Positions 5,709 to 57,189 of a DNA stretch of 64,000 nt are shown here, in pieces. Made by a program: the position numbers and the translations under genes. The notes under the pieces are model-generated. The model did not search any database, was not told where the DNA came from, and saw only the letters and a program-made list of their open reading frames with translations. Position 1 is the first letter of the stretch. Each line of letters starts with the position of its first letter. Source of the DNA: Candidatus Doudnabacteria bacterium (GTDB lineage Bacteria; Patescibacteriota; Doudnabacteria; UBA920); the NCBI GenBank assembly GCA_016788665.1, contig JAEUSF010000001.1, positions 48,222 to 112,221 of the forward strand, given 5' to 3'.

Positions 5709-5807
5709 AAATCAAAGTTTAAATATGAAAATGTAAAATTACAGTCGTCACCCGAACGGCGGCTCTATGCTTTTAACTGTGATCTTACATTTTTAATTTT
5801 AGTAAGC

Positions 5808-6527: not shown

Positions 6528-6556
6528 GTTCAGAATTAAGAAGTAAGAATTATGAA

Positions 6557-7225
6557 TTAAGATTTGAAACTAATGATAACAGTAATCTCCCCTTTTATGC
6601 TTGGTTTTTCTTGAAGTTGGTGGATTACATCTAGCGGGTTGCCGCGAATGAATTCTTCGTGGAGTTTGGTAAGTTCTCTTGCTACAACTACGTTAGCTGT
6701 GGGAAATGCATTTGCTATGTAAGAAAGGGTTTTTAAAATTCTTTCCGGAGATTCATAAAAAATTGCTGTGGCTTCTGCTGCTTCCGCGGCTTGTAAGGCA
6801 GAAACGGTTTTTGCAGCTGTCTTTTGCAAAAATCCGAGAAACATAAAACGGTCGGTGGGCAGGCCCGAGGCAGAAAGCGCTGCTATGGCAGCATTGGCGC
6901 CAGGGATTGGAATTACTTGTACGTTTTGGTTAACGCATTCTCTAACCAGTCTAAACCCCGGGTCGCTTATGCCAGGAGTTCCGGCATCGGTAATAAATGC
7001 ACCGTTTTGTTTGGAGAGTCTTCGGGCTAGTTCTTTAACTACTTGCTGCTCGTTATGTTCTGCGAATTGGAATATTTCTTTATTTCTGATATCTAAATGT
7101 TGAAGCAACCTATTTGAATAACCAGGATTTTCTGCAACTATAAAATCGCACGCTTTTAAGGTTTCTATCGCGCGTAAGGTTATATCCCCCAGGTTCCCTA
7201 TTGGTGTTGCAACAACGTAAAGCAT
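6557..7225 (-). CDS. rsmI: 16S rRNA (cytidine1402-2'-O)-methyltransferase
   Basis: MLYVVATPIGNLGDITLRAIETL...DFIVAE, tetrapyrrole-methylase fold typical of RsmI. Confidence 0.85.
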   Translation of the reverse strand: MLYVVATPIGNLGDITLRAIETLKACDFIVAENPGYSNRLLQHLDIRNKEIFQFAEHNEQQVVKELARRLSKQNGAFITDAGTPGISDPGFRLVRECVNQNVQVIPIPGANAAIAALSASGLPTDRFMFLGFLQKTAAKTVSALQAAEAAEATAIFYESPERILKTLSYIANAFPTANVVVARELTKLHEEFIRGNPLDVIHQLQEKPSIKGEITVIISFKS

Positions 7226-7268
7226 TTGATTTAAAAGAATTAAAGGATTTAAATGACTGACAAGATTA

Positions 7269-7571
7269 TTAGAAATTATTTGAATGCTTGCTAATAGATG
7301 TTGACCTTGATGCTGTCATGACAGCTGTTAGTTCGTCAGCTTCTTTTAATAAAGATTCAACTGTTACCTCGTTTAAAATATTGGAAGCAACCATAAGTTC
7401 TAACCAGCCTAATGTTTCGTCTGGCTCTTTTACCACAGTCCCCATTTTCAAAATAAAATCTTTTGGTAATTTACTCCTACAAGCAGCTCTGTAGTTACTG
7501 TATATGTCAGTACCCGATCTTAAAATTTGATCCCCTATTTTTCTAACCACTAACCCATGATTTTTCTCCAA
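7269..7571 (-). CDS. four-helix-bundle protein (23S rRNA intervening-sequence protein family, TIGR02436/PF05635-like)
   Basis: SNYRAA..S...DFI.K....E..ET..WLEL pattern shared with the second copy at 46749-47093; flanked by inverted repeats (see findings). Confidence 0.55.
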   Translation of the reverse strand: MEKNHGLVVRKIGDQILRSGTDIYSNYRAACRSKLPKDFILKMGTVVKEPDETLGWLELMVASNILNEVTVESLLKEADELTAVMTASRSTSISKHSNNF

Positions 7572-7690
7572 ATATTGTACAAGTTTAACAATCCTTACCG
7601 CAAACTTTTTGGTTCTTTCTTTTAATTCGTCGCGTGTTATAGGGTGTAATCATTTAAATCTTTTAAATGATGTCGACCTTTTAAATCATA

Positions 7691-7963
7691 CTACTCGTCA
7701 GTAGGTTCTAGTCCAAACATTTCTTCTATAAGCTGGTACTTATTATGGAGCATTTCTCGGTAATCTCCTAATTCCCATTTAGAGTCACCTTCCGCTTGGT
7801 CGTAGTCGTCTTGAGTTTTTTTCAGTTCCTCATTTATTTCTTCTAGGATTTCGTAAGCCTGATCTTCGGTTTGAGGGGCTTGGTCCATCCATTCTTCAAA
7901 AGTTAGATTTAAAAGTTTTTCGTACTTTTCTTGATATATGTTTCTAAGTTTGTCTTGGTCCAT
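7691..7963 (-). CDS. small acidic hypothetical protein (90 aa)
   Basis: Complete ORF, highly acidic (many D/E), no recognised domain. Confidence 0.4.
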   Translation of the reverse strand: MDQDKLRNIYQEKYEKLLNLTFEEWMDQAPQTEDQAYEILEEINEELKKTQDDYDQAEGDSKWELGDYREMLHNKYQLIEEMFGLEPTDE

Positions 7964-8548
7964 AAGTAGTGTTTATGCGGATCTGCGGATTGGTCGCGGA
8001 TATGCTGATGTCTATGGATTATGCATCAGTAGGAATCCGTTTATCCGTGTACAATCAGTAGGTCCGTGTTAATTTAGTAGCTCATTTATTTTACAATAAA
8101 ATTTGAAAATGAAAAACCCCTTGCATATCCACTAAGTGGTCATGACAAGAGGTTTTTGAAAAGCTGAAAATAAGAGTCTATAGCCGTGCGATTCACCGCA
8201 CAGCCAATTGTCCAAAAAATGAGGACAAAATGAGCACGGCTTGTGCTTTAGTTTTTTTATTCGATTGTATTTTGTTTTTGTTTCATTCTCCTTTTGGAGA
8301 AGAAAATTGCTTTTCTATATACAGTATAGCAGATTTTTGTCCGCTTGTCTAGAGTCTTTTTGCTAAATTATGAAGGTTATCAAAAATGATGTTGGTAATT
8401 TTTTGTAGTCTCCTTAGTCAAAATCGTATTTTTTACTTCAAAATCGAAAAGTTTGCTTTTTAAATCTTTAAATTGCCGGAAATTTGCGTGAATTTGATCA
8501 GTGTTATCATAGAATATAACTGCCAATTTTATTTTTTTTGAAAGCATA

Positions 8549-10012
8549 CTATATCCAATCAAAATTAATTGCTGCTAGATCGTCAAAAGTTATGGTTTTG
8601 CTTAGTTTCTCTGAAGCGGGTATATATTTTTGAGAAAAATAGTCGTAAAGGTCAGCGGTGGCTACCGAAAGAAGTTTGTTAAATTCCATTTTAAAAACTT
8701 GGTCTAAATATTCTTTAGTCATACCATTTTGAGCTATTATATCTGCAGCGTATAAAGCCCTAATTTGTTCGTTTATGCGTCCAAAAAAGATTGCTATGCC
8801 AGCTATAAACCCTGTCGTGTCGACTTCATTTATAAGGTCGTGCTCGGTGGAATATTCGGTGTTTTCTAAACTTTTTAACCACGCTTGTCTAAAGTGTTCT
8901 AAGTAGACCGTTGAGCCATAGCCCGTAAGAGGTTTTACTCCGGCATAAAAGTTTAAAACAGAAAAAATGGTAAAAAGACTAGGGTAAATTTCTTTTTTTT
9001 CCAGCAATTCAATCACAATGTCTGGTTTAAGTTCTATGCTTAAATGTTTAAAGCGTTCGTCCTCCGGCACAAGCTTATTGCCTTGGATGTACATCCTTAA
9101 AGAGCGGGGTTCGTTTGGATATTTTCGCCAAAAGAAATGTGTGCCTTTTTTTTCTTTTTCGTTCCAAGCGACCACTATGCCTCGAAAGTTATTTATTACC
9201 TTATTTCTGAGATTTTCTTCAAACAAAGAGGCGGAAACAAAATTGTCCTCTCTTAATATTTGCTTTAAGCATTCTGCTATAAGCTCCTCTTGAGTAATAT
9301 ATATAAGTTCAGGTAGACGCTTTCTTACAGAGCCTTCAAAAATTAAAGGCCAAGTATTTTTTACAATTAAGCTAACTTGATCGTTATAATTTGTACAACT
9401 TTCAAAATTTATATTATTTACTAAACTTTGGTATTTATCTAAAAAGTTTTTTTCCGACTCGTTAAATACGTTCCATCGTTTTATATTCTTTAAGCGGTCT
9501 ACAAAATTAAAGTCCCTTTTTGGTATAAAGTAAGAACAGTACTCTCTTTCGTTAGCGCTAAATAAAGGAACAGTTTTTCCATGAAATTGAAAACCACTTT
9601 TGCTGAAATAATTGTTAGGCGGTACATCGCCACTGGAAATTACTATGGTGGCAGATTGCCTGCGGCTTCCCTGTATTTTTGAAACGCTACTTATTACGTT
9701 TGAGGAAACTAAAATTGGGTGGTTAAGTATTTGGTGGTGATCTGCAATATTAAAAGATAAATTTTCTTCCAATTCAACTCTTAACTGGTTAATGGCGTCA
9801 GGTCCAAATAATGCAGTGATTTTATTTAGCAAAATTTTTTTTATTAAGCCTTGTCTAGTTTTGTGTATATTAGAAACTTTGAAATTATACAACTTATCAG
9901 AGTAAATATTGACCGGGTCTTTGACATCTAAAAAGCGTGCAAAAAGCGGCACATAATGTTTTATCTGTTCTATAATTTTTTCTTTTTCCAAAATAATTTT
10001 GTCGGTATCCAT
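8549..10012 (-). CDS. hypothetical protein (487 aa), no recognised domain
   Basis: Long uninterrupted ORF in the AT-rich context; no P-loop or other diagnostic motif seen. Confidence 0.5.
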   Translation of the reverse strand: MDTDKIILEKEKIIEQIKHYVPLFARFLDVKDPVNIYSDKLYNFKVSNIHKTRQGLIKKILLNKITALFGPDAINQLRVELEENLSFNIADHHQILNHPILVSSNVISSVSKIQGSRRQSATIVISSGDVPPNNYFSKSGFQFHGKTVPLFSANEREYCSYFIPKRDFNFVDRLKNIKRWNVFNESEKNFLDKYQSLVNNINFESCTNYNDQVSLIVKNTWPLIFEGSVRKRLPELIYITQEELIAECLKQILREDNFVSASLFEENLRNKVINNFRGIVVAWNEKEKKGTHFFWRKYPNEPRSLRMYIQGNKLVPEDERFKHLSIELKPDIVIELLEKKEIYPSLFTIFSVLNFYAGVKPLTGYGSTVYLEHFRQAWLKSLENTEYSTEHDLINEVDTTGFIAGIAIFFGRINEQIRALYAADIIAQNGMTKEYLDQVFKMEFNKLLSVATADLYDYFSQKYIPASEKLSKTITFDDLAAINFDWI

Positions 10013-10083
10013 GTCTGAATTGTAAAGAAAATATATATTATTTACAATATTCCAAATAAAAATCCGCCTAACGCGGATTTTTA

Positions 10084-10160
10084 TGGTGGGCGTGCCTGGA
10101 CTCGAACCAGGGACCCCGAAGGTATAAGCTTCGTGCTCTAACCAGCTGAGCTACACGCCC
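10084..10160 (-). tRNA. tRNA-Ile, anticodon UAU (reads AUA), CCA encoded
   Basis: Manual fold: GGGCGTG/TA/GCTC-AGCTGGTTA-GAGC/A/CGAAG-CTTATAC-CTTCG/GGGTC/CCTGG-TTCGAGT-CCAGG/CACGCCC/A/CCA. The D-arm is the canonical Ile type and the anticodon loop is CUUAUAC. Confidence 0.8.
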
Positions 10161-13613: not shown

Positions 13614-13698
13614 TTAAATGCAGAATGAAGAATCGAGAATGCAGAAGCACAAGGAATGATTTTTTTACTTCTGCATTTTGCATTCTAAATTTTTTAAT

Positions 13699-18328: not shown

Positions 18329-18415
18329 TGGTGCCCAGGGAGGGAATCGAACCCTCAATCCCTTGCGGGCGACGGATTTTAAGTCCGTAGCGTATACCAG
18401 TTCCGCCACCTGGGC
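18329..18415 (-). tRNA. tRNA-Leu, anticodon UAA, long variable arm, CCA encoded
   Basis: Manual fold: acceptor GCCCAGG/CCTGGGC, anticodon stem ACGGA/TCCGT with loop CTTAAAA, T-arm GAGGG-TTCGATT-CCCTC. Confidence 0.85.
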
Positions 18416-18552
18416 ATATATTTACTTAGTCCTGCTTCGCATGAAGCTACGTAGGACACTTCTTCGTTTGCGATATTTAAGTATTATCGAAAAAGAACCA
18501 TATGAATAGCAATGCTTGCACTTCATAGTTCCTTTTGGAAGGAACGAAGAAG

Positions 18553-18627
18553 TGGAGGTGCAGATGGGAATCGAACCCATGCATTGCGGTTTTGCAGACC
18601 GCCGCGTTACCACTTCGCCACTGCACC
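18553..18627 (-). tRNA. tRNA-Cys, anticodon GCA, CCA encoded
   Basis: GGTGCAG...GCGGT-CTGCAAA-ACCGC...ATGGG-TTCGATT-CCCAT-CTGCACC-T-CCA. Confidence 0.85.
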
Positions 18628-26417: not shown

Positions 26418-26491
26418 TGGAGCGGCTAAGGGGAATCGAACCCCTATCCTCTCCATGGCAAGGAGAAGTTCTACCATTGAACCATAGCCGC
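26418..26491 (-). tRNA. tRNA-Gly, anticodon GCC
   Basis: GCGGCTA...TCTCC-TTGCCAT-GGAGA...GGGGG-TTCGATT-CCCCT-TAGCCGC-T-CCA. Confidence 0.85.
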
Positions 26492-26536
26492 AAGTAATAA
26501 CTATTTTATCAATTCTATTTAATTTGGCAAATTTTT

Positions 26537-26611
26537 TGGTGCCGCGGGTCAGGATCGAACTGACGACACGACGCTCTTCAGGCGTCTGCTCTACCACTGA
26601 GCTACCGCGGC
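26537..26611 (-). tRNA. tRNA-Phe, anticodon GAA
   Basis: GCCGCGG-TA-GCTC-AGTGGTA-GAGC...GACGC-CTGAAGA-GCGTC...GTCAG-TTCGATC-CTGAC-CCGCGGC-A-CCA. Confidence 0.85.
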
Positions 26612-27072: not shown

Positions 27073-27149
27073 CTGGTGGGCAATAAAGGATTCGAACCTT
27101 TGGCCTTCTCGGTGTAAACGAGACGCTCTAACCAACTGAGCTAATTGCC
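27073..27149 (-). tRNA. tRNA-Val, anticodon UAC
   Basis: GGGCAAT...TCTCG-TTTACAC-CGAGA...AAAGG-TTCGAAT-CCTTT-ATTGCCC-A-CCA. Confidence 0.85.
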
Positions 27150-27341
27150 CGTAATAATTTCAATGCCTCAGAGACGAGACTTGTATAAGCAGATTTAATT
27201 TTATGACGCTTGTCCGCTATAGCCACTTAAGCGACAGCGGCGGAAGCTAATTGCCCTAAGTTTATATACTAAATGTTTTTTAAGCCACAAATCTTTTTTC
27301 GCCTGCTGTAATTAGCGTAAAAAACTTGCCCAAATACTATA

Positions 27342-28471: not shown

Positions 28472-28545
28472 AAATGCAAAATTCAGAATGCAAAATGGTA
28501 GGTGCTCTGTTATACATTTTGCATTTTTAATTTGTAATTTTGCAT

Positions 28546-29550: not shown

Positions 29551-29611
29551 AATGCAAATGCCAAAGTATAATTCAAATACTAGGAATTAATTTGAGATTT
29601 GTAATTTGAAA

Positions 29612-35875: not shown

Positions 35876-35964
35876 AAATAAATTTCAAATATCAAATGCC
35901 AAATTTCAAATAAATACTTGGCATGATTTTGAATTTGAAATTTGTAATTTGTAATTTTATATTA

Positions 35965-42134: not shown

Positions 42135-42209
42135 GCTCTTGTAGTTCAATGGATAGAACAGCGCCGTCCTAAGGCGTGGATGTAGGTTCGATTCCTACCG
42201 AGAGCACCA
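42135..42209 (+). tRNA. tRNA-Arg, anticodon CCU
   Basis: GCTCTTG-TA-GTTC-AATGGATA-GAAC-A-GCGCC-GTCCTAA-GGCGT...GTAGG-TTCGATT-CCTAC-CGAGAGC-A-CCA. Confidence 0.8.
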
Positions 42210-42371
42210 TAGGCGTGGGGTTATAACAAAATAGTGGAATTATTGCACAATTTATTTTTTGTTTGGAACTGTATAGTTTGTTGGTATGTTGCAGAAAATG
42301 CATCCAAATGTGCAGCTAGTAGTTACCACTTATAACGGCTTATTTAAAAGAAAAATTAATCCTAAAACAAA

Positions 42372-42704
42372 ATGATAGATCCAGAATTACAACATTATTT
42401 GTCCGGCATTAATCAGCATTTGGGCGAAATTAAAAAAAACCAAAAGGTTGGTGTTTGGAGAGCATTTTTTAATGGGGTCTTTGGTGCGTTGGGGTATGCT
42501 GTAGGACTGGCTATTGTTGTTGGAATTTTAGGGTGGATATTAAAGGAAACGGGTTATTTGGGAAAGTTTAGACAACAAGCAAGGGACTTTCAATCAATTA
42601 TAAATGAGTTAAAAAATTTAAGACAACCATTTAACGAAACAGGGGAGAGTGTAATTACATTGCCGGATGGAAGGGAAGTAAAGGTTATTTCTCCCACAGA
42701 GTAA
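42372..42704 (+). CDS. hypothetical small membrane protein (110 aa)
   Basis: One or two TM helices (FFNGVFGALGYAVGLAIVVGILGWIL); no known motif. Confidence 0.45.
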   Translation: MIDPELQHYLSGINQHLGEIKKNQKVGVWRAFFNGVFGALGYAVGLAIVVGILGWILKETGYLGKFRQQARDFQSIINELKNLRQPFNETGESVITLPDGREVKVISPTE

Positions 42705-42760
42705 AATCTTGAAGTATTTCGCAATATAAGTTAAAATTATTTGAGTTAATTGTAATAAAT

Positions 42761-42834
42761 GGGCCAATAGTATAGTGGTAATACACATCCATGGCATGGA
42801 TGGGTTCCGGGTTCGATTCCCGGTTGGTCCACCA
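42761..42834 (+). tRNA. tRNA-Ala, anticodon GGC (G3:U70)
   Basis: GGGCCAA...CATCC-ATGGCAT-GGATG...CCGGG-TTCGATT-CCCGG-TTGGTCC-A-CCA. Confidence 0.85.
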
Positions 42835-43015
42835 GCCTTTCAGCCTTCGTAGCCGGTAATTAGATTTAAGTTTTATCGTTTTGTTTTGCATTACTTACAA
42901 CATAAGCATTTAAACCAAGTTTGCTTCGACTAAGTGGGCGCTAAAGCTTTTGGCTGGCTTGCGCCAAATGCGGAAGCTTGAGTAAAAGGTTTGTCGAAGG
43001 TTGTTTTGTAAAAAA

Positions 43016-43089
43016 CGGGATGTAGTATACCGGTAGTACGCGCGCTTCGGGTGCGTGAAGACAGGGTTCGATTCCCTGCATCCCGACCA
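43016..43089 (+). tRNA. tRNA-Pro, anticodon CGG
   Basis: CGGGATG...CGCGC-TTCGGGT-GCGTG-AAGA-CAGGG-TTCGATT-CCCTG-CATCCCG-A-CCA. Confidence 0.85.
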
Positions 43090-45547: not shown

Positions 45548-46709
45548 AATATCAAATATCAAATATCAAATATCAAAGTTAAGGCATGTCTTTACAAGGC
45601 CTAGAGTAAGCTACGAGCCGCTTATTGAAGTGAGGATTTCTAAAGAGGCGATTTTGCATAATCTAAAAACTTATAGAGAAGCTTATCCAAAGTTTGGATT
45701 CGTGCCAGTTTTAAAAAGCAATGCCTATGGGCATGGGTTAGTAGAGGTTGCGAGTATTTTAGACAAAGAGAATGCGCCGTTTTTTATGGTGGATTCTTTT
45801 TATGAAGCTTTGGTTTTAAGAAGAGCAGGAATTAAAACCAAAATTTTGGTGTTAGGCTACGCTACGCTTGAGCAAATAAATAAAAATAATTTAAAAGATG
45901 TAAGCTTTGCGATTATAGACTTAGAGCAGTTAAAAAATATTTCAGCTAACTTAATAAGGAAAACTTTTTTTCATTTAAAAATTGACACGGGAATGCACAG
46001 GCAAGGCATGTTACCTGGGCAAGTAATGGAGGCGGTAAAAATTATTCGAAGCAACAGTAATTTTATTTTGGAAGGTGTGTGTAGTCATTTTGCTGATGCG
46101 GATGGAAAAGACCAGTCTTTTTCAAAAGGACAAATAAAACTTTGGAATGAAGTTTCGAGAGATTTGCAAAATCTATTTAGTTCTATTAAATTTTTGCATT
46201 TGTCCAATACGGGTGGGGCGTTTTATTTACCCGAAATAAATGCGAACGTGGGACGTTTGGGTATTGGCCTGTATGGATTCAATACTTCCCATTTTAGCAA
46301 TTTGAACTTAAAGCCAGCTTTAGAAATGGTTTCGATTGTAACTTCCATAAAAACTATTTCCGCTGGAGAAAAAGTAGGCTACAATAATTTATATACCGCT
46401 ACGCGGCCGACTAAAATTGCAACAGTGCCAGTTGGTTATAACGAAGGTTTGGATCGCAGATTATCCGATAAGGGCTTTGTAAAAATTAATAACTCCTTTT
46501 GCCCTATTGTGGGACGTATAAGTATGAATATGTGCAGCATAGATGTTACAGAAATAAAAAATATAAAGTTAGAGGATGAAGTCGTTGTAATAAGTAGAAA
46601 TTCACAAGATAAAAATTCAGTAGAAAGTATATCGGAGCTTACGGGTCAGATACCTCATGAAATTTTGGTTGATGTGCCAGGGTATTTAAAAAGAGTTGTT
46701 AGTGGTTAA
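45540..46709 (+). CDS. alr: alanine racemase
   Basis: PLP-lysine motif VLKSNAYGHG; start ATG 45540 overlaps the murF stop (ATGTTTGA). The ORF track gives an alternative start at 45504. Confidence 0.85.
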   Translation: MFEISNIKYQISKLRHVFTRPRVSYEPLIEVRISKEAILHNLKTYREAYPKFGFVPVLKSNAYGHGLVEVASILDKENAPFFMVDSFYEALVLRRAGIKTKILVLGYATLEQINKNNLKDVSFAIIDLEQLKNISANLIRKTFFHLKIDTGMHRQGMLPGQVMEAVKIIRSNSNFILEGVCSHFADADGKDQSFSKGQIKLWNEVSRDLQNLFSSIKFLHLSNTGGAFYLPEINANVGRLGIGLYGFNTSHFSNLNLKPALEMVSIVTSIKTISAGEKVGYNNLYTATRPTKIATVPVGYNEGLDRRLSDKGFVKINNSFCPIVGRISMNMCSIDVTEIKNIKLEDEVVVISRNSQDKNSVESISELTGQIPHEILVDVPGYLKRVVSG

Positions 46710-46748
46710 ATTTGTAATTTTATAGTTTTTAATTTTTAAATAAACCCT

Positions 46749-47093
46749 ATGAACTATGATCTCGAGGAGCGTACAGCAAAGTTCGGTGAGAATATTTTAA
46801 ATTTTTTAAAAACTATTCAGGCAGATCATATAACCAAGCCTTTAATAAACCAGCTTGTTCGCTCGGCAACAAGCATAGGTGCTAATTATATGGAGGCGAA
46901 TCAAGCAAGTTCAAAAAAAGATTTTTACAATAAAATAAGAATTTCTCAAAAAGAGTCTAATGAAACCAAGCATTGGATAAGAATGTTATCAACTGTTATG
47001 GGAGAAGAAAAAGAGCAATTAAGAAATTTTTGGAAAGAAGCGCATGAATTAACATTAATTTTTGCAAAAATATCGAAAAGTAATCAAAAGTAA
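46749..47093 (+). CDS. four-helix-bundle protein (23S rRNA intervening-sequence protein family, TIGR02436)
   Basis: SIGANYMEANQASSKKDFYNKIRISQKESNETKHWIRM is the canonical signature; inserted between alr and ddl. Confidence 0.75.
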   Translation: MNYDLEERTAKFGENILNFLKTIQADHITKPLINQLVRSATSIGANYMEANQASSKKDFYNKIRISQKESNETKHWIRMLSTVMGEEKEQLRNFWKEAHELTLIFAKISKSNQK

Positions 47094-47131
47094 ATTATTT
47101 AAAAATTATAAAATTACAAATTAAAAATTAT

Positions 47132-57050: not shown

Positions 57051-57189
57051 ATATAATTAAATTCTAAATTGCAAATATTTGGGTGCCAGTAAAATTCGGA
57101 GTTGGCTTCTTAAGTAAGAATTAACCCTGAAACTTTCGGCTTCTGCGTATTCGTTAAAATTTGTAATTTGGTACTAAAGATTTTGATCA

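Follow-up and report, generated by a model that had tools for sequence, protein, structure and literature searches.

Do the inverted repeats around a small gene in an operon of Candidatus Doudnabacteria belong to the gene, to the site in which it lies, or to chance, and is the gene with its repeats a discrete unit? We analysed a 64-kb stretch of contig JAEUSF010000001.1 (hereafter the window; 38% GC, AT-rich spacers), in which three co-directional minus-strand genes, a small acidic open reading frame (ORF), a four-helix-bundle (4HB) protein gene and rsmI, are followed by yebC and ruvC. The 4HB gene and the two arms beside it make up a cassette of ~465 bp at positions 7226–7690. We consider it likely that this is a compact cassette of the intervening-sequence (IVS) type placed in an mRNA operon, in which arms and ORF form one unit and the arms pair with each other and are probably recognised. 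The locus is laid out as follows.

7269–7640, minus strand: 4HB protein gene (123 aa, isoelectric point (pI) 9.3, PF05635/TIGR02436).
7641–7690, minus strand: upstream arm (5′ of the 4HB ORF on the sense strand), filling the spacer from the acidic-ORF stop to the 4HB start; inverted-repeat core at 7650–7689.
Upstream-arm units, minus strand: ATTTAAAAG at 7686–7678, GTCGACATC at 7677–7669, ATTTAAAAG at 7668–7660 and ATTTAAATG at 7659–7651.
7226–7268, minus strand: downstream arm (3′ of the 4HB ORF on the sense strand), filling the spacer from the 4HB stop to the rsmI start; inverted-repeat core at 7227–7256.
Downstream-arm units, plus strand: ATTTAAAAG at 7229–7237, AATTAAAGG at 7238–7246, ATTTAAATG at 7247–7255 and ACTGACAAG at 7256–7264.
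7691–7963, minus strand: upstream host gene, the acidic ORF (90 aa, pI 4.1, without a Pfam family), with its stop 2–3 nt from the outer end of the upstream arm.
6557–7225, minus strand: downstream host gene rsmI (16S rRNA 2′-O-methyltransferase family, PF00590), with its ATG 1–2 nt from the outer end of the downstream arm.

The spacers beside the 4HB gene, 43 nt on the left and 50 nt on the right, are inverted copies of each other (7227–7256 versus 7650–7689) that differ by one 9-nt indel. Both arms consist of tandem 9-nt units (ATTTAAAAG, AATTAAAGG, ATTTAAATG and ACTGACAAG, with their complements opposite) arranged in opposite orientation. At the level of modules, the left spacer carries TTTGATTTAAAAG at 7225–7237, followed after 9 nt by ATTTAAATGA at 7247–7256, and the right spacer carries TCATTTAAAT at 7650–7659, followed after 18 nt by CTTTTAAATCATA at 7678–7690. 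When the left spacer is aligned with gaps to the reverse-complemented right spacer, the best result reads TGATTTAAAAG, the 9-nt indel, and A(A/T)TTAAA(G/A)GATTTAAATGA, with matches at 28 of 30 aligned positions and a score of 20–21. ATTTAAAT and TTTAAA are self-complementary and account for a trivial part of this match; TTTAAA has 161 copies in the window. The score was nevertheless reached by none of 5000 mononucleotide shuffles and by none of 5000 second-order Markov sequences generated from a model trained on the window's own AT-rich spacers, and a score of at least 20 was found in only 2 of 24,738 pairs of other intergenic segments. When the 63 genes of the window were ranked by flank complementarity, the two 4HB genes came first (46749–47093; score 25) and second (7269–7640; score 21), compared with a mean of 8.9 (sd 3.4) and a next-highest value of 16. 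The words of the rsmI cassette were found nowhere else in the window. The arms of this cassette are non-random.

An earlier sequence-only reading of the locus had placed a 100-aa 4HB ORF between rsmI and a small acidic ORF, bounded by a bipartite terminal inverted repeat running from 7222 to 7690, and had named chance matches between AT-rich sequences as what could undo it. The inverted repeats were borne out by the alignment and the shuffles, the two neighbours are those it described, and chance AT-rich matches failed to reach the arm score under either null model. The strings that it quoted are present and the right end at 7678–7690 is correct; the left end starts at 7225 and not at 7222, three positions off, and CAT at 7223–7225 is the start codon of rsmI. 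The arms turned out to be tandem 9-nt units instead of a bipartite terminal repeat, and the ORF has 123 aa, not 100.

The encoded protein, a basic member of the S23p/Avd-like (23S_rRNA_IVP) family, matched PF05635 with 46.7 bits (cut-off 33.8) over profile positions 7–105 of 106, and TIGR02436 with 64.2 bits (cut-off 24) from profile position 2, well upstream of TTG 7571. No Pfam family other than PF05635 was matched. Solved members of PF05635/TIGR02436 are four-helix bundles that form a pentameric ring. The protein resembled PDB 2rld in sequence, with an E value of 2.9e-13. An ORF called mechanically from TTG 7571 omits the N-terminal helix. The reading frame is open back to TGA 7650–7652 and contains no ATG, GTG or TTG in between. 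Because ATA 7638–7640 aligns with the ATG start codon of the orthologue in the closest relative (L001), and because a deposited protein (P0001, 123 aa, annotated as a four helix bundle protein of Candidatus Doudnabacteria) likewise begins at this ATA, we placed the gene at 7269–7640. A +1 frameshift at CCC 7641–7643, considered as an explanation of the missing start codon, was dropped since the orthologue's ATG corresponds to the window's ATA. An out-of-frame ATG at 7651–7653, near the 4HB start, opens an ORF of 22 codons only. The dN/dS of the 4HB ORF ranged from 0.07 to 0.19, the latter for the window versus L001, and the ORF is under purifying selection. The window copy, starting at ATA, may be poorly translated or beginning to decay, though its dN/dS against L001 is 0.19.

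The window contains a second cassette, between alr (alanine racemase) and ddl (D-Ala-D-Ala ligase), neighbours that were identified by Pfam.

46706–46743, plus strand: upstream arm of the second cassette, between alr and the 4HB gene (AATTTGTAATTTTATAGTTTTTAATTTTTAAATAA).
46749–47093, plus strand: second 4HB gene (114 aa, pI 9.4), between alr and ddl.
47095–47129, plus strand: downstream arm of the second cassette, ending 2 nt before the ddl start codon.

The proteins of the two cassettes are 31% identical (tblastn E 1e-12). The inverted pairs of the second cassette extend over 35 nt at 83% identity and 27 nt at 93% identity, with an arm score of 23–25; the flank ranking given above confirmed the earlier statement that both 4HB genes of the window are bounded by inverted repeats. 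The units are 9 nt long in the rsmI cassette and 7–9 nt long in the alr/ddl cassette. An apparent opposite polarity of the arms in the two cassettes was dropped, as ATTT-type units lie upstream on the sense strand in both. The alr/ddl arm word AATTTGTAATTT occurred 16 times at no more than one mismatch, compared with 3.7 expected (0 of 100 shuffles). Its exact copies lie at 28529, 35939, 35946, 39403, 46709, 47111 and 57158, and five of these seven are in spacers, including spacers that contain no ORF.

ORF-less hairpins with inverted tandem 7–9-nt units were found at 5709–5807, 7975–8068, 13614–13698, 28472–28545, 29551–29611, 35876–35964 and 57051–57189. Their words include GAATGCA.../...TGCATTC (13614–13698), GCGGAT.../...ATCCGC (7975–8068) and TTTGAAA/TTTGTAA (35876–35964), and similar words occur in the arms of 4HB cassettes elsewhere (GAATGCA in loci L116 and L139, GCGGATT in L091 and L133, and ATTTGAAA in L117). 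The ORF-less hairpins of the window may be ORF-less derivatives of 4HB cassettes. In the rsmI/yebC spacer (window 6528–6556 versus L001 4664–4730), a TACTAAA-type hairpin was gained or lost between the window and L001, and in the yebC/ruvC spacer (window 5709–5807 versus L001 5450–5530) L001 has an entirely different hairpin made of ATCCTTG.../...AAGGAT heptamers. The RsmI proteins of the two genomes are 95% identical, and between the window and L001 spacer hairpins turn over much faster than genes.

How general is the association of 4HB genes with inverted arms? A metagenome scan with the family alignment recovered 80 loci (41–67% identity, contig GC of 35–69%), of which 70 had both flanks. 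Cross-locus pairs were contaminated as a null by truly homologous arms (maximum score 41), and control genes from the same loci were used instead. Flank complementarity of at least 20 was found for 41% of the 70 homologues and for 0.9% of 109 control genes (p = 1e-10, Mann-Whitney test), a ~45-fold enrichment of inverted arms at 4HB genes. Inverted arms are a family-wide property of 4HB genes. Of 34 cases, 27 had arms with a 7-nt period; ATTGGTG, ATTTAGG, AATGCCG, GGATTGC, GAGTGCG and GAATGCA are among the units. On the sense strand, upstream arms contained 71 copies of GATT and downstream arms 8, and AATC showed the reverse; the arrays are therefore polar relative to the ORF. The elements measured 420–535 bp, and 27 of 34 started no more than ~15 nt from the stop of a preceding ORF in the same orientation, a count that is approximate given mechanical ORF calls in GC-rich DNA.

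Cultured cyanobacteria carry such cassettes as well. GTCGGAG units flank the gene in Nostoc punctiforme PCC 73102 (score 37), GATTTTA units abut the start and stop codons in Gloeocapsa PCC 7428, and AATCGTA and AATCCCC units are found in Planktothrix agardhii. Carrier genes in these three cyanobacteria include NPUN_RS34315, GLO7428_RS25575 and NMG84_RS21765, respectively. Cyanobacterial cassettes were observed within or beside defence and mobile-element loci on plasmids of Nostoc punctiforme PCC 73102, Planktothrix agardhii, Gloeocapsa PCC 7428 and Anabaena cylindrica PCC 7122 (L167–L170); their surroundings include DISARM drmD/MmeI-type enzyme, DUF1156 protein/HEPN protein, cas2/cas1, and a position beside xisH/xisI and a Tn7-like tnsA.

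Do the arms belong to the gene or to the site? Homologues with 64–70% identity were located at unrelated junctions, namely pilB/pilC, DHH/pilB and, twice, sugar nucleotidyltransferase/epimerase, all co-oriented with their neighbours. The window's 9-mer words GATTGACAA, GATTTAAAA and GAATGACAA recurred in the arms of three of these four loci (L161, L163 and L165), but not in L164 (score 16.5). The upstream arm was conserved in L001, L018, L034 and L163, and the downstream arm was 97% identical to that of L001 and 87–89% identical to those of L018 and L163. Across 48 cassettes, the sharing of arm 6-mers rose from 3% to 33% with increasing protein identity (Spearman 0.31; 0 of 2000 permutations). 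Because the arms are 82–95% identical within the window's subfamily, while third codon positions are saturated at 35–47%, the arms are under purifying selection at the sequence level, about as strong as that on codon positions 1 and 2. These comparisons indicate that cassettes at other loci have inherited their arms along with the ORF. In L161 (3376–3522) and L165 (3379–3516), the 4HB stop codon is directly followed, ahead of the outer downstream arm, by an extra ORF-less hairpin built of the same 9-mers; arrays can therefore be nested or duplicated.

Occupancy of the junctions was examined in Doudnabacteria relatives, in which a scan of species-representative genomes with RsmI gave 46 Doudnabacteria-type loci. 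The acidic-ORF/rsmI junction held a 4HB gene in four loci (L001, L002, L018 and L034; 64–81% identity) and none in 15, in which the acidic ORF lies within 0–113 nt of rsmI without a cassette. Truly empty junctions were seen in L017 (taaCatg) and L046 (taaatg). Most other 4HB-less acidic-ORF/rsmI junctions contain a hairpin of 60–113 nt with short units in tandem in both arms; TACGAA x4 / TTCGTA x4 is one such pair. The ORF-less hairpin at this site in L021 aligned to both cassette arms (score 26; 0 of 2000 shuffles); it is a cassette minus its ORF, and arms can persist in this form. At the rsmI/yebC junction, which has no 4HB gene in the window, seven other loci carry one. In all six of these cassettes that were examined, inverted arms of tandem units reach up to the start codon; in five they also reach the stop codon. 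The arm words differ among cassettes at this site, yet ATTAAATAAA-type units are common to L003, L029 and L033.

The window and L001 share ~80–90% DNA identity throughout, and the cassette in these two genomes looks vertically inherited. A different pattern was found between L018 and L034, in which the cassette including both arms has 88–98% DNA identity and the flanking genes 55–70%. The dS is 0.44 in the cassette ORF versus 1.2–2.2 in the flanking genes, and the acidic ORFs are 53% identical at the protein level. Identity drops at the outer ends of the arms, steeply toward rsmI and over ~75 nt into the acidic ORF. This divergence break points to at least one transfer of the cassette between diverged genomes. 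No direct repeat outside the arms, as a target-site duplication would leave, was seen at the inspected junctions of the window, L001, L018, L034 and L163. The earlier suggestion that the 4HB family is mobile thus gained support from site occupancy, from the other insertion sites and from the L018/L034 break, and synteny in relatives supports a discrete cassette that moved over evolutionary time. Its wording of terminal inverted repeats has to be qualified, as the cassette shows neither a target-site duplication nor a transposase, its arms are short tandem arrays, and similar ORF-less hairpins exist elsewhere.

RNA folding was predicted for both cassettes of the window, and in minimum free energy and centroid structures alike a flank–flank stem closed the whole ORF. 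The predicted closing stem has 12 + 5 + 13 pairs in the rsmI cassette (z = −2.5) and 24 bp in the alr/ddl cassette (z = −3.4), and the terminal stem was retained by RNAalifold across six cassettes, one of them from another locus. In the polycistronic acidic-ORF/4HB/rsmI transcript, the arms would thus be modelled as pairing in a ~30-bp stem with the 4HB ORF looped out. Only 0–5 nt separate the base of the stem from the stop codon upstream and the start codon downstream; the insertion would therefore keep stop and start close in space, as they are at the truly empty junctions. By analogy with rRNA IVSs, the stem is probably a substrate of RNase III, and such processing might render insertions in rRNA or operons harmless and allow the element to be maintained. 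A search for RNase III signature motifs, confined to the 64-kb window, gave none. The arms are probably recognised sequence-specifically, because it is the arm sequence, and not only the complementarity, that is conserved and that changes with the protein subfamily. The encoded basic 4HB protein is the most economical candidate for the arm-binding factor.

Several observations weigh against this picture of a mobile unit with paired arms. About half of the surveyed homologues lacked detectable arms within 90 nt, and the polarity of the arrays is reversed in Planktothrix agardhii. Across the six cassettes compared with RNAalifold, compensatory changes in the stem were few and the covariation term was slightly positive, and arm mismatches showed no excess of G.U-compatible over A.C pairs (58 vs 56); the sense RNA is therefore not singled out over DNA as the level of selection. 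The order of units in the 9-mer subfamily is only partly mirrored between the arms, a pattern that arrays of binding sites would explain no less well than a strict helix would. For Doudnabacteria, formation of the stem and its cleavage by RNase III are proposed by analogy. The cassette contains no nuclease or recombinase and has no visible target-site duplication, and its mobility is inferred from distribution only. All of the Doudnabacteria loci are metagenome-assembled, and assembly chimeras at repeated cassettes are conceivable.

Could the arms have arisen differently? Spacers rich in the palindromes TTTAAA and ATTTAAAT might mimic inverted repeats by chance in a 38% GC genome, and both words are self-reverse-complementary, TTTAAA being present at ~3x its mononucleotide expectation (~57 copies). 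However, neither the shuffles nor the spacer-trained Markov sequences reached the arm score, the 4HB genes lead the ranking of 63 genes, the arms are conserved in five other genomes, and the enrichment over control genes is family-wide; a chance origin of the arms is excluded, and the probability left to it is negligible. Another explanation is a non-autonomous DNA transposon resembling a miniature inverted-repeat transposable element (MITE), with the arms as terminal inverted repeats bound by a transposase encoded elsewhere and the 4HB gene as passenger cargo. The inverted ends, the patchy distribution, the several insertion sites, the ORF-less derivatives known among these loci and the fall of L018/L034 identity at the arm ends all agree with it, and a transposon origin has long been among the hypotheses for rRNA IVSs (PMC4990558). 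Of the hallmarks of MITEs and insertion sequences, the cassette has the terminal inverted repeats; a cassette-level search found no transposase, the 4HB protein being the sole ORF, no target-site duplication was found at any of the inspected junctions, and near-identical copies within one genome were not seen, as the two window cassettes differ in their arms and share 31% protein identity. Moreover, the ends are variable-number arrays of 7–9-nt tandem units with no defined terminal sequence, the arm vocabulary tracks the 4HB subfamily, which would not be expected of a passenger gene whose ends are read by a transposase encoded separately, and purifying selection acts on the 4HB ORF in almost every copy examined. 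We regard such a transposon as an unlikely source of the cassette.

The arms might instead belong to the site, if a naked 4HB gene had landed in the loop of a host-owned intercistronic hairpin serving as a signal for processing, stability or coupling. Most 4HB-less acidic-ORF/rsmI junctions are themselves tandem-unit hairpins, the window holds at least seven further ORF-less hairpin spacers, and even L001, the closest relative, differs from the window in such spacers. But the window's arm words recur beside the gene in L161, L163 and L165, three of the four close homologues examined at unrelated junctions, arm similarity correlates with protein similarity, and the block of high identity between L018 and L034 takes in both arms and stops at their outer edges. 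The association extends to distant phyla and high-GC genomes, and the L021 hairpin is recognisable as cassette arms, which argues that hairpins derive from cassettes and not the reverse; a host-owned hairpin is quite improbable. Local control of the 4HB gene, by a promoter or operator upstream and a terminator or operator downstream with a symmetry due to one dimeric regulator, could draw on the conservation of the arm sequence, on a weak sigma-70-like match in the upstream arm (TCGACA, 16 nt, AATGAT; 9/12) and on the perfect TTGACA held by the unit GATTGACAA of relatives. Promoter-like matches numbered 10, compared with 6.3 ± 2.5 in shuffles, which is not significant, and the heptamers of most other subfamilies have no words like −35 or −10 elements. 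No terminator-like T-run follows the downstream arm, and the arms abut the stop and start codons of the neighbours, which fits an inserted unit better than a regulatory region. We consider local control very improbable, and the IVS-type cassette, with arms and ORF as one unit, remains our preferred reading.

ORF-bearing 23S rRNA IVSs with S23p proteins occur in Coxiella burnetii, Leptospira, Haemophilus and Brucella. In the 23S IVS of Coxiella burnetii, the S23p ORF lies in the loop of a 28-bp terminal stem, excision by RNase III was obtained in vitro, and the heptamer GACAGAT is repeated 3–4 times directly before a start codon with a poor or absent Shine-Dalgarno sequence (PMC4990558). The rRNA IVSs are patchily distributed and have been described as a 'selfish element' of obscure origin (PMC4990558). 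Like them, the cassettes studied here comprise a PF05635 homologue in ~0.43–0.76 kb, with the ORF in the loop between complementary termini, and, as in Coxiella, short tandem repeats stand directly upstream of the ORF (9-nt here, heptamers in 27 of 34 relatives). Unlike them, the cassettes lie between protein-coding genes (acidic ORF/rsmI; alr/ddl) and not in 23S helix 9, 25 or 45. The Coxiella ORF is seemingly decaying, whereas the window 4HB ORF is under purifying selection, and RNase III excision would extend to the window cassette by analogy only. Judged by its sequence features, the cassette matches an IVS-type architecture placed in an mRNA operon of a candidate-phylum bacterium.

The arms also resemble the heptamer arrays of other bacteria, which include GGGGA(T/C)T in Nostoc PCC 7120 and GGGAATC in Xanthomonas, where ~70 arrays form inverted pairs (PMC4692102, PMC4679880). 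Arrays of the short tandemly repeated repetitive (STRR) type are intergenic and transcribed, have ~4 tandem heptamers, and are often arranged as inverted pairs able to form stem-loops (PMC4692102). Such arrays form the cassette arms in Planktothrix (AATCCCC, AATCGTA), Nostoc punctiforme (GTCGGAG) and Gloeocapsa (GATTTTA), whereas the window's units are AT-rich and are 9-mers in the rsmI cassette and 7–9 nt long in the alr/ddl cassette. The heptamer papers treat the arrays as simple-sequence or G-quadruplex repeats and mention 4HB genes not once (PMC4692102, PMC4679880), and a literature search in one library returned no paper on non-rRNA 4HB genes as cassettes bounded by inverted repeat arrays.

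Similarities to other systems are partial. Like repetitive extragenic palindromes (REPs) and their associated tyrosine transposase (RAYT), the cassettes combine a small gene flanked by inverted repeats with ORF-less intergenic hairpins in the same genome. In the REP/REPIN case, work attributed to Nunvar in 2010 and to Bertels and Rainey in 2011 reportedly describes a small RAYT gene between inverted short repeats and dispersed ORF-less hairpin copies. RAYT is a transposase of the HUH/Y1 type, but no catalytic domain can be recognised in the 4HB protein; REPs are single palindromes, whereas the arms are tandem arrays, several vocabularies of which coexist in one genome. The Correia elements of Neisseria (NEMIS) are MITEs between co-transcribed genes, whose inverted repeats fold in the mRNA and are cut by RNase III; they have no ORF, a TA target duplication and near-identical sequences. 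In contrast, the window cassettes have an ORF, no target duplication and divergent sequences. Avd, the accessory protein of diversity-generating retroelements (DGRs), binds nucleic acid and acts beside hairpin-forming DNA. The 4HB protein is a homologous basic four-helix-bundle protein, but, unlike at DGR avd genes, no reverse transcriptase, template or variable repeat was found beside either 4HB gene of the window. PF05635 is the commonest Pfam family beside DGR reverse transcriptases (PMC10053308). PADLOC gave no match at the cassettes.

Some features around the cassette are recorded here in their own right. The acidic ORF was considered as a part of the cassette and rejected: the 89-aa ORF upstream of the L161 cassette is not homologous to it, and the acidic ORF is therefore a host gene. 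Upstream of it, at 8088–8351 on the minus strand, a promoter-like site (TAGACA, 17 nt, TATACT with a TG motif; 10/12) is followed in order by an AAGGAG-led 9-codon ORF, two hairpins, and a terminator-like stem with a T-run. This segment is 78–93% identical to L001, equal to or above the neighbouring coding sequence, and no Rfam family matched it; its features could represent a small RNA or a leader. A segment of ~1.9 kb (~8400–10100), with an ORF of 487 aa at 8549–10012 on the minus strand without a Pfam match, is missing from L001, and its flanks are 80–90% identical between the two genomes. L018 and L020 carry homologues of the 487-aa ORF (53–60% identity), located at different positions. 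An in-frame, low-complexity insertion of 18–51 aa and of variable sequence was found in the RsmI of L004, L005, L008, L011, L013, L018 and L027 and is absent from the window RsmI. Its site is fixed, after RLLQ(H/Y)I (~residues 44–95), its length was ~30–50 aa in the five sequences inspected, and the insert DNA in the rsmI of L018 has GGAAT/ATTCC-type inverted words. The window has twelve tRNA genes (e.g. 10087–10160, 18332–18627, 26421–26611, 27077–27150 and 42135–43086), and in an Rfam scan of the 64 kb only tRNAs reached the threshold, with no rRNA and no family for the cassette region.

The 23S rRNA IVSs and their 'S23p' ORFs have been unexplained in origin and function since the early 1990s; the heptanucleotide arrays of cyanobacteria and xanthomonads also lack an explanation. 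Our analysis suggests that IVSs and heptamer arrays are faces of one element type, a small basic 4HB gene within inverted arrays of short repeats. Elements of this type would insert precisely at gene junctions, with an apparent preference for stop–start junctions of co-directional genes; their arms would stay under selection and change vocabulary together with the protein, and ORF-less hairpins would be left behind. A broader proposal, which we put forward tentatively as a possibility with the odds somewhat against it, is that 4HB proteins are the cognate nucleic-acid-binding factors of the flanking arrays; gene and arrays would then form a class of selfish elements without a canonical transposase, whose ORF-less derivatives would be the STRR-type heptamer hairpins of cyanobacteria, xanthomonads and candidate phyla and whose rRNA members would be the 23S IVSs. 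The interest lies in the family-wide pattern and in the testable link between protein and repeat more than in the single locus. The vague annotation 'four helix bundle protein' is turned into concrete questions, namely whether the protein binds its own repeats and whether RNase III cuts the stem, and cultured carriers such as Nostoc punctiforme PCC 73102 are at hand. The cassettes lie inside operons, cyanobacterial defence operons among them, and may affect the expression of neighbouring genes.

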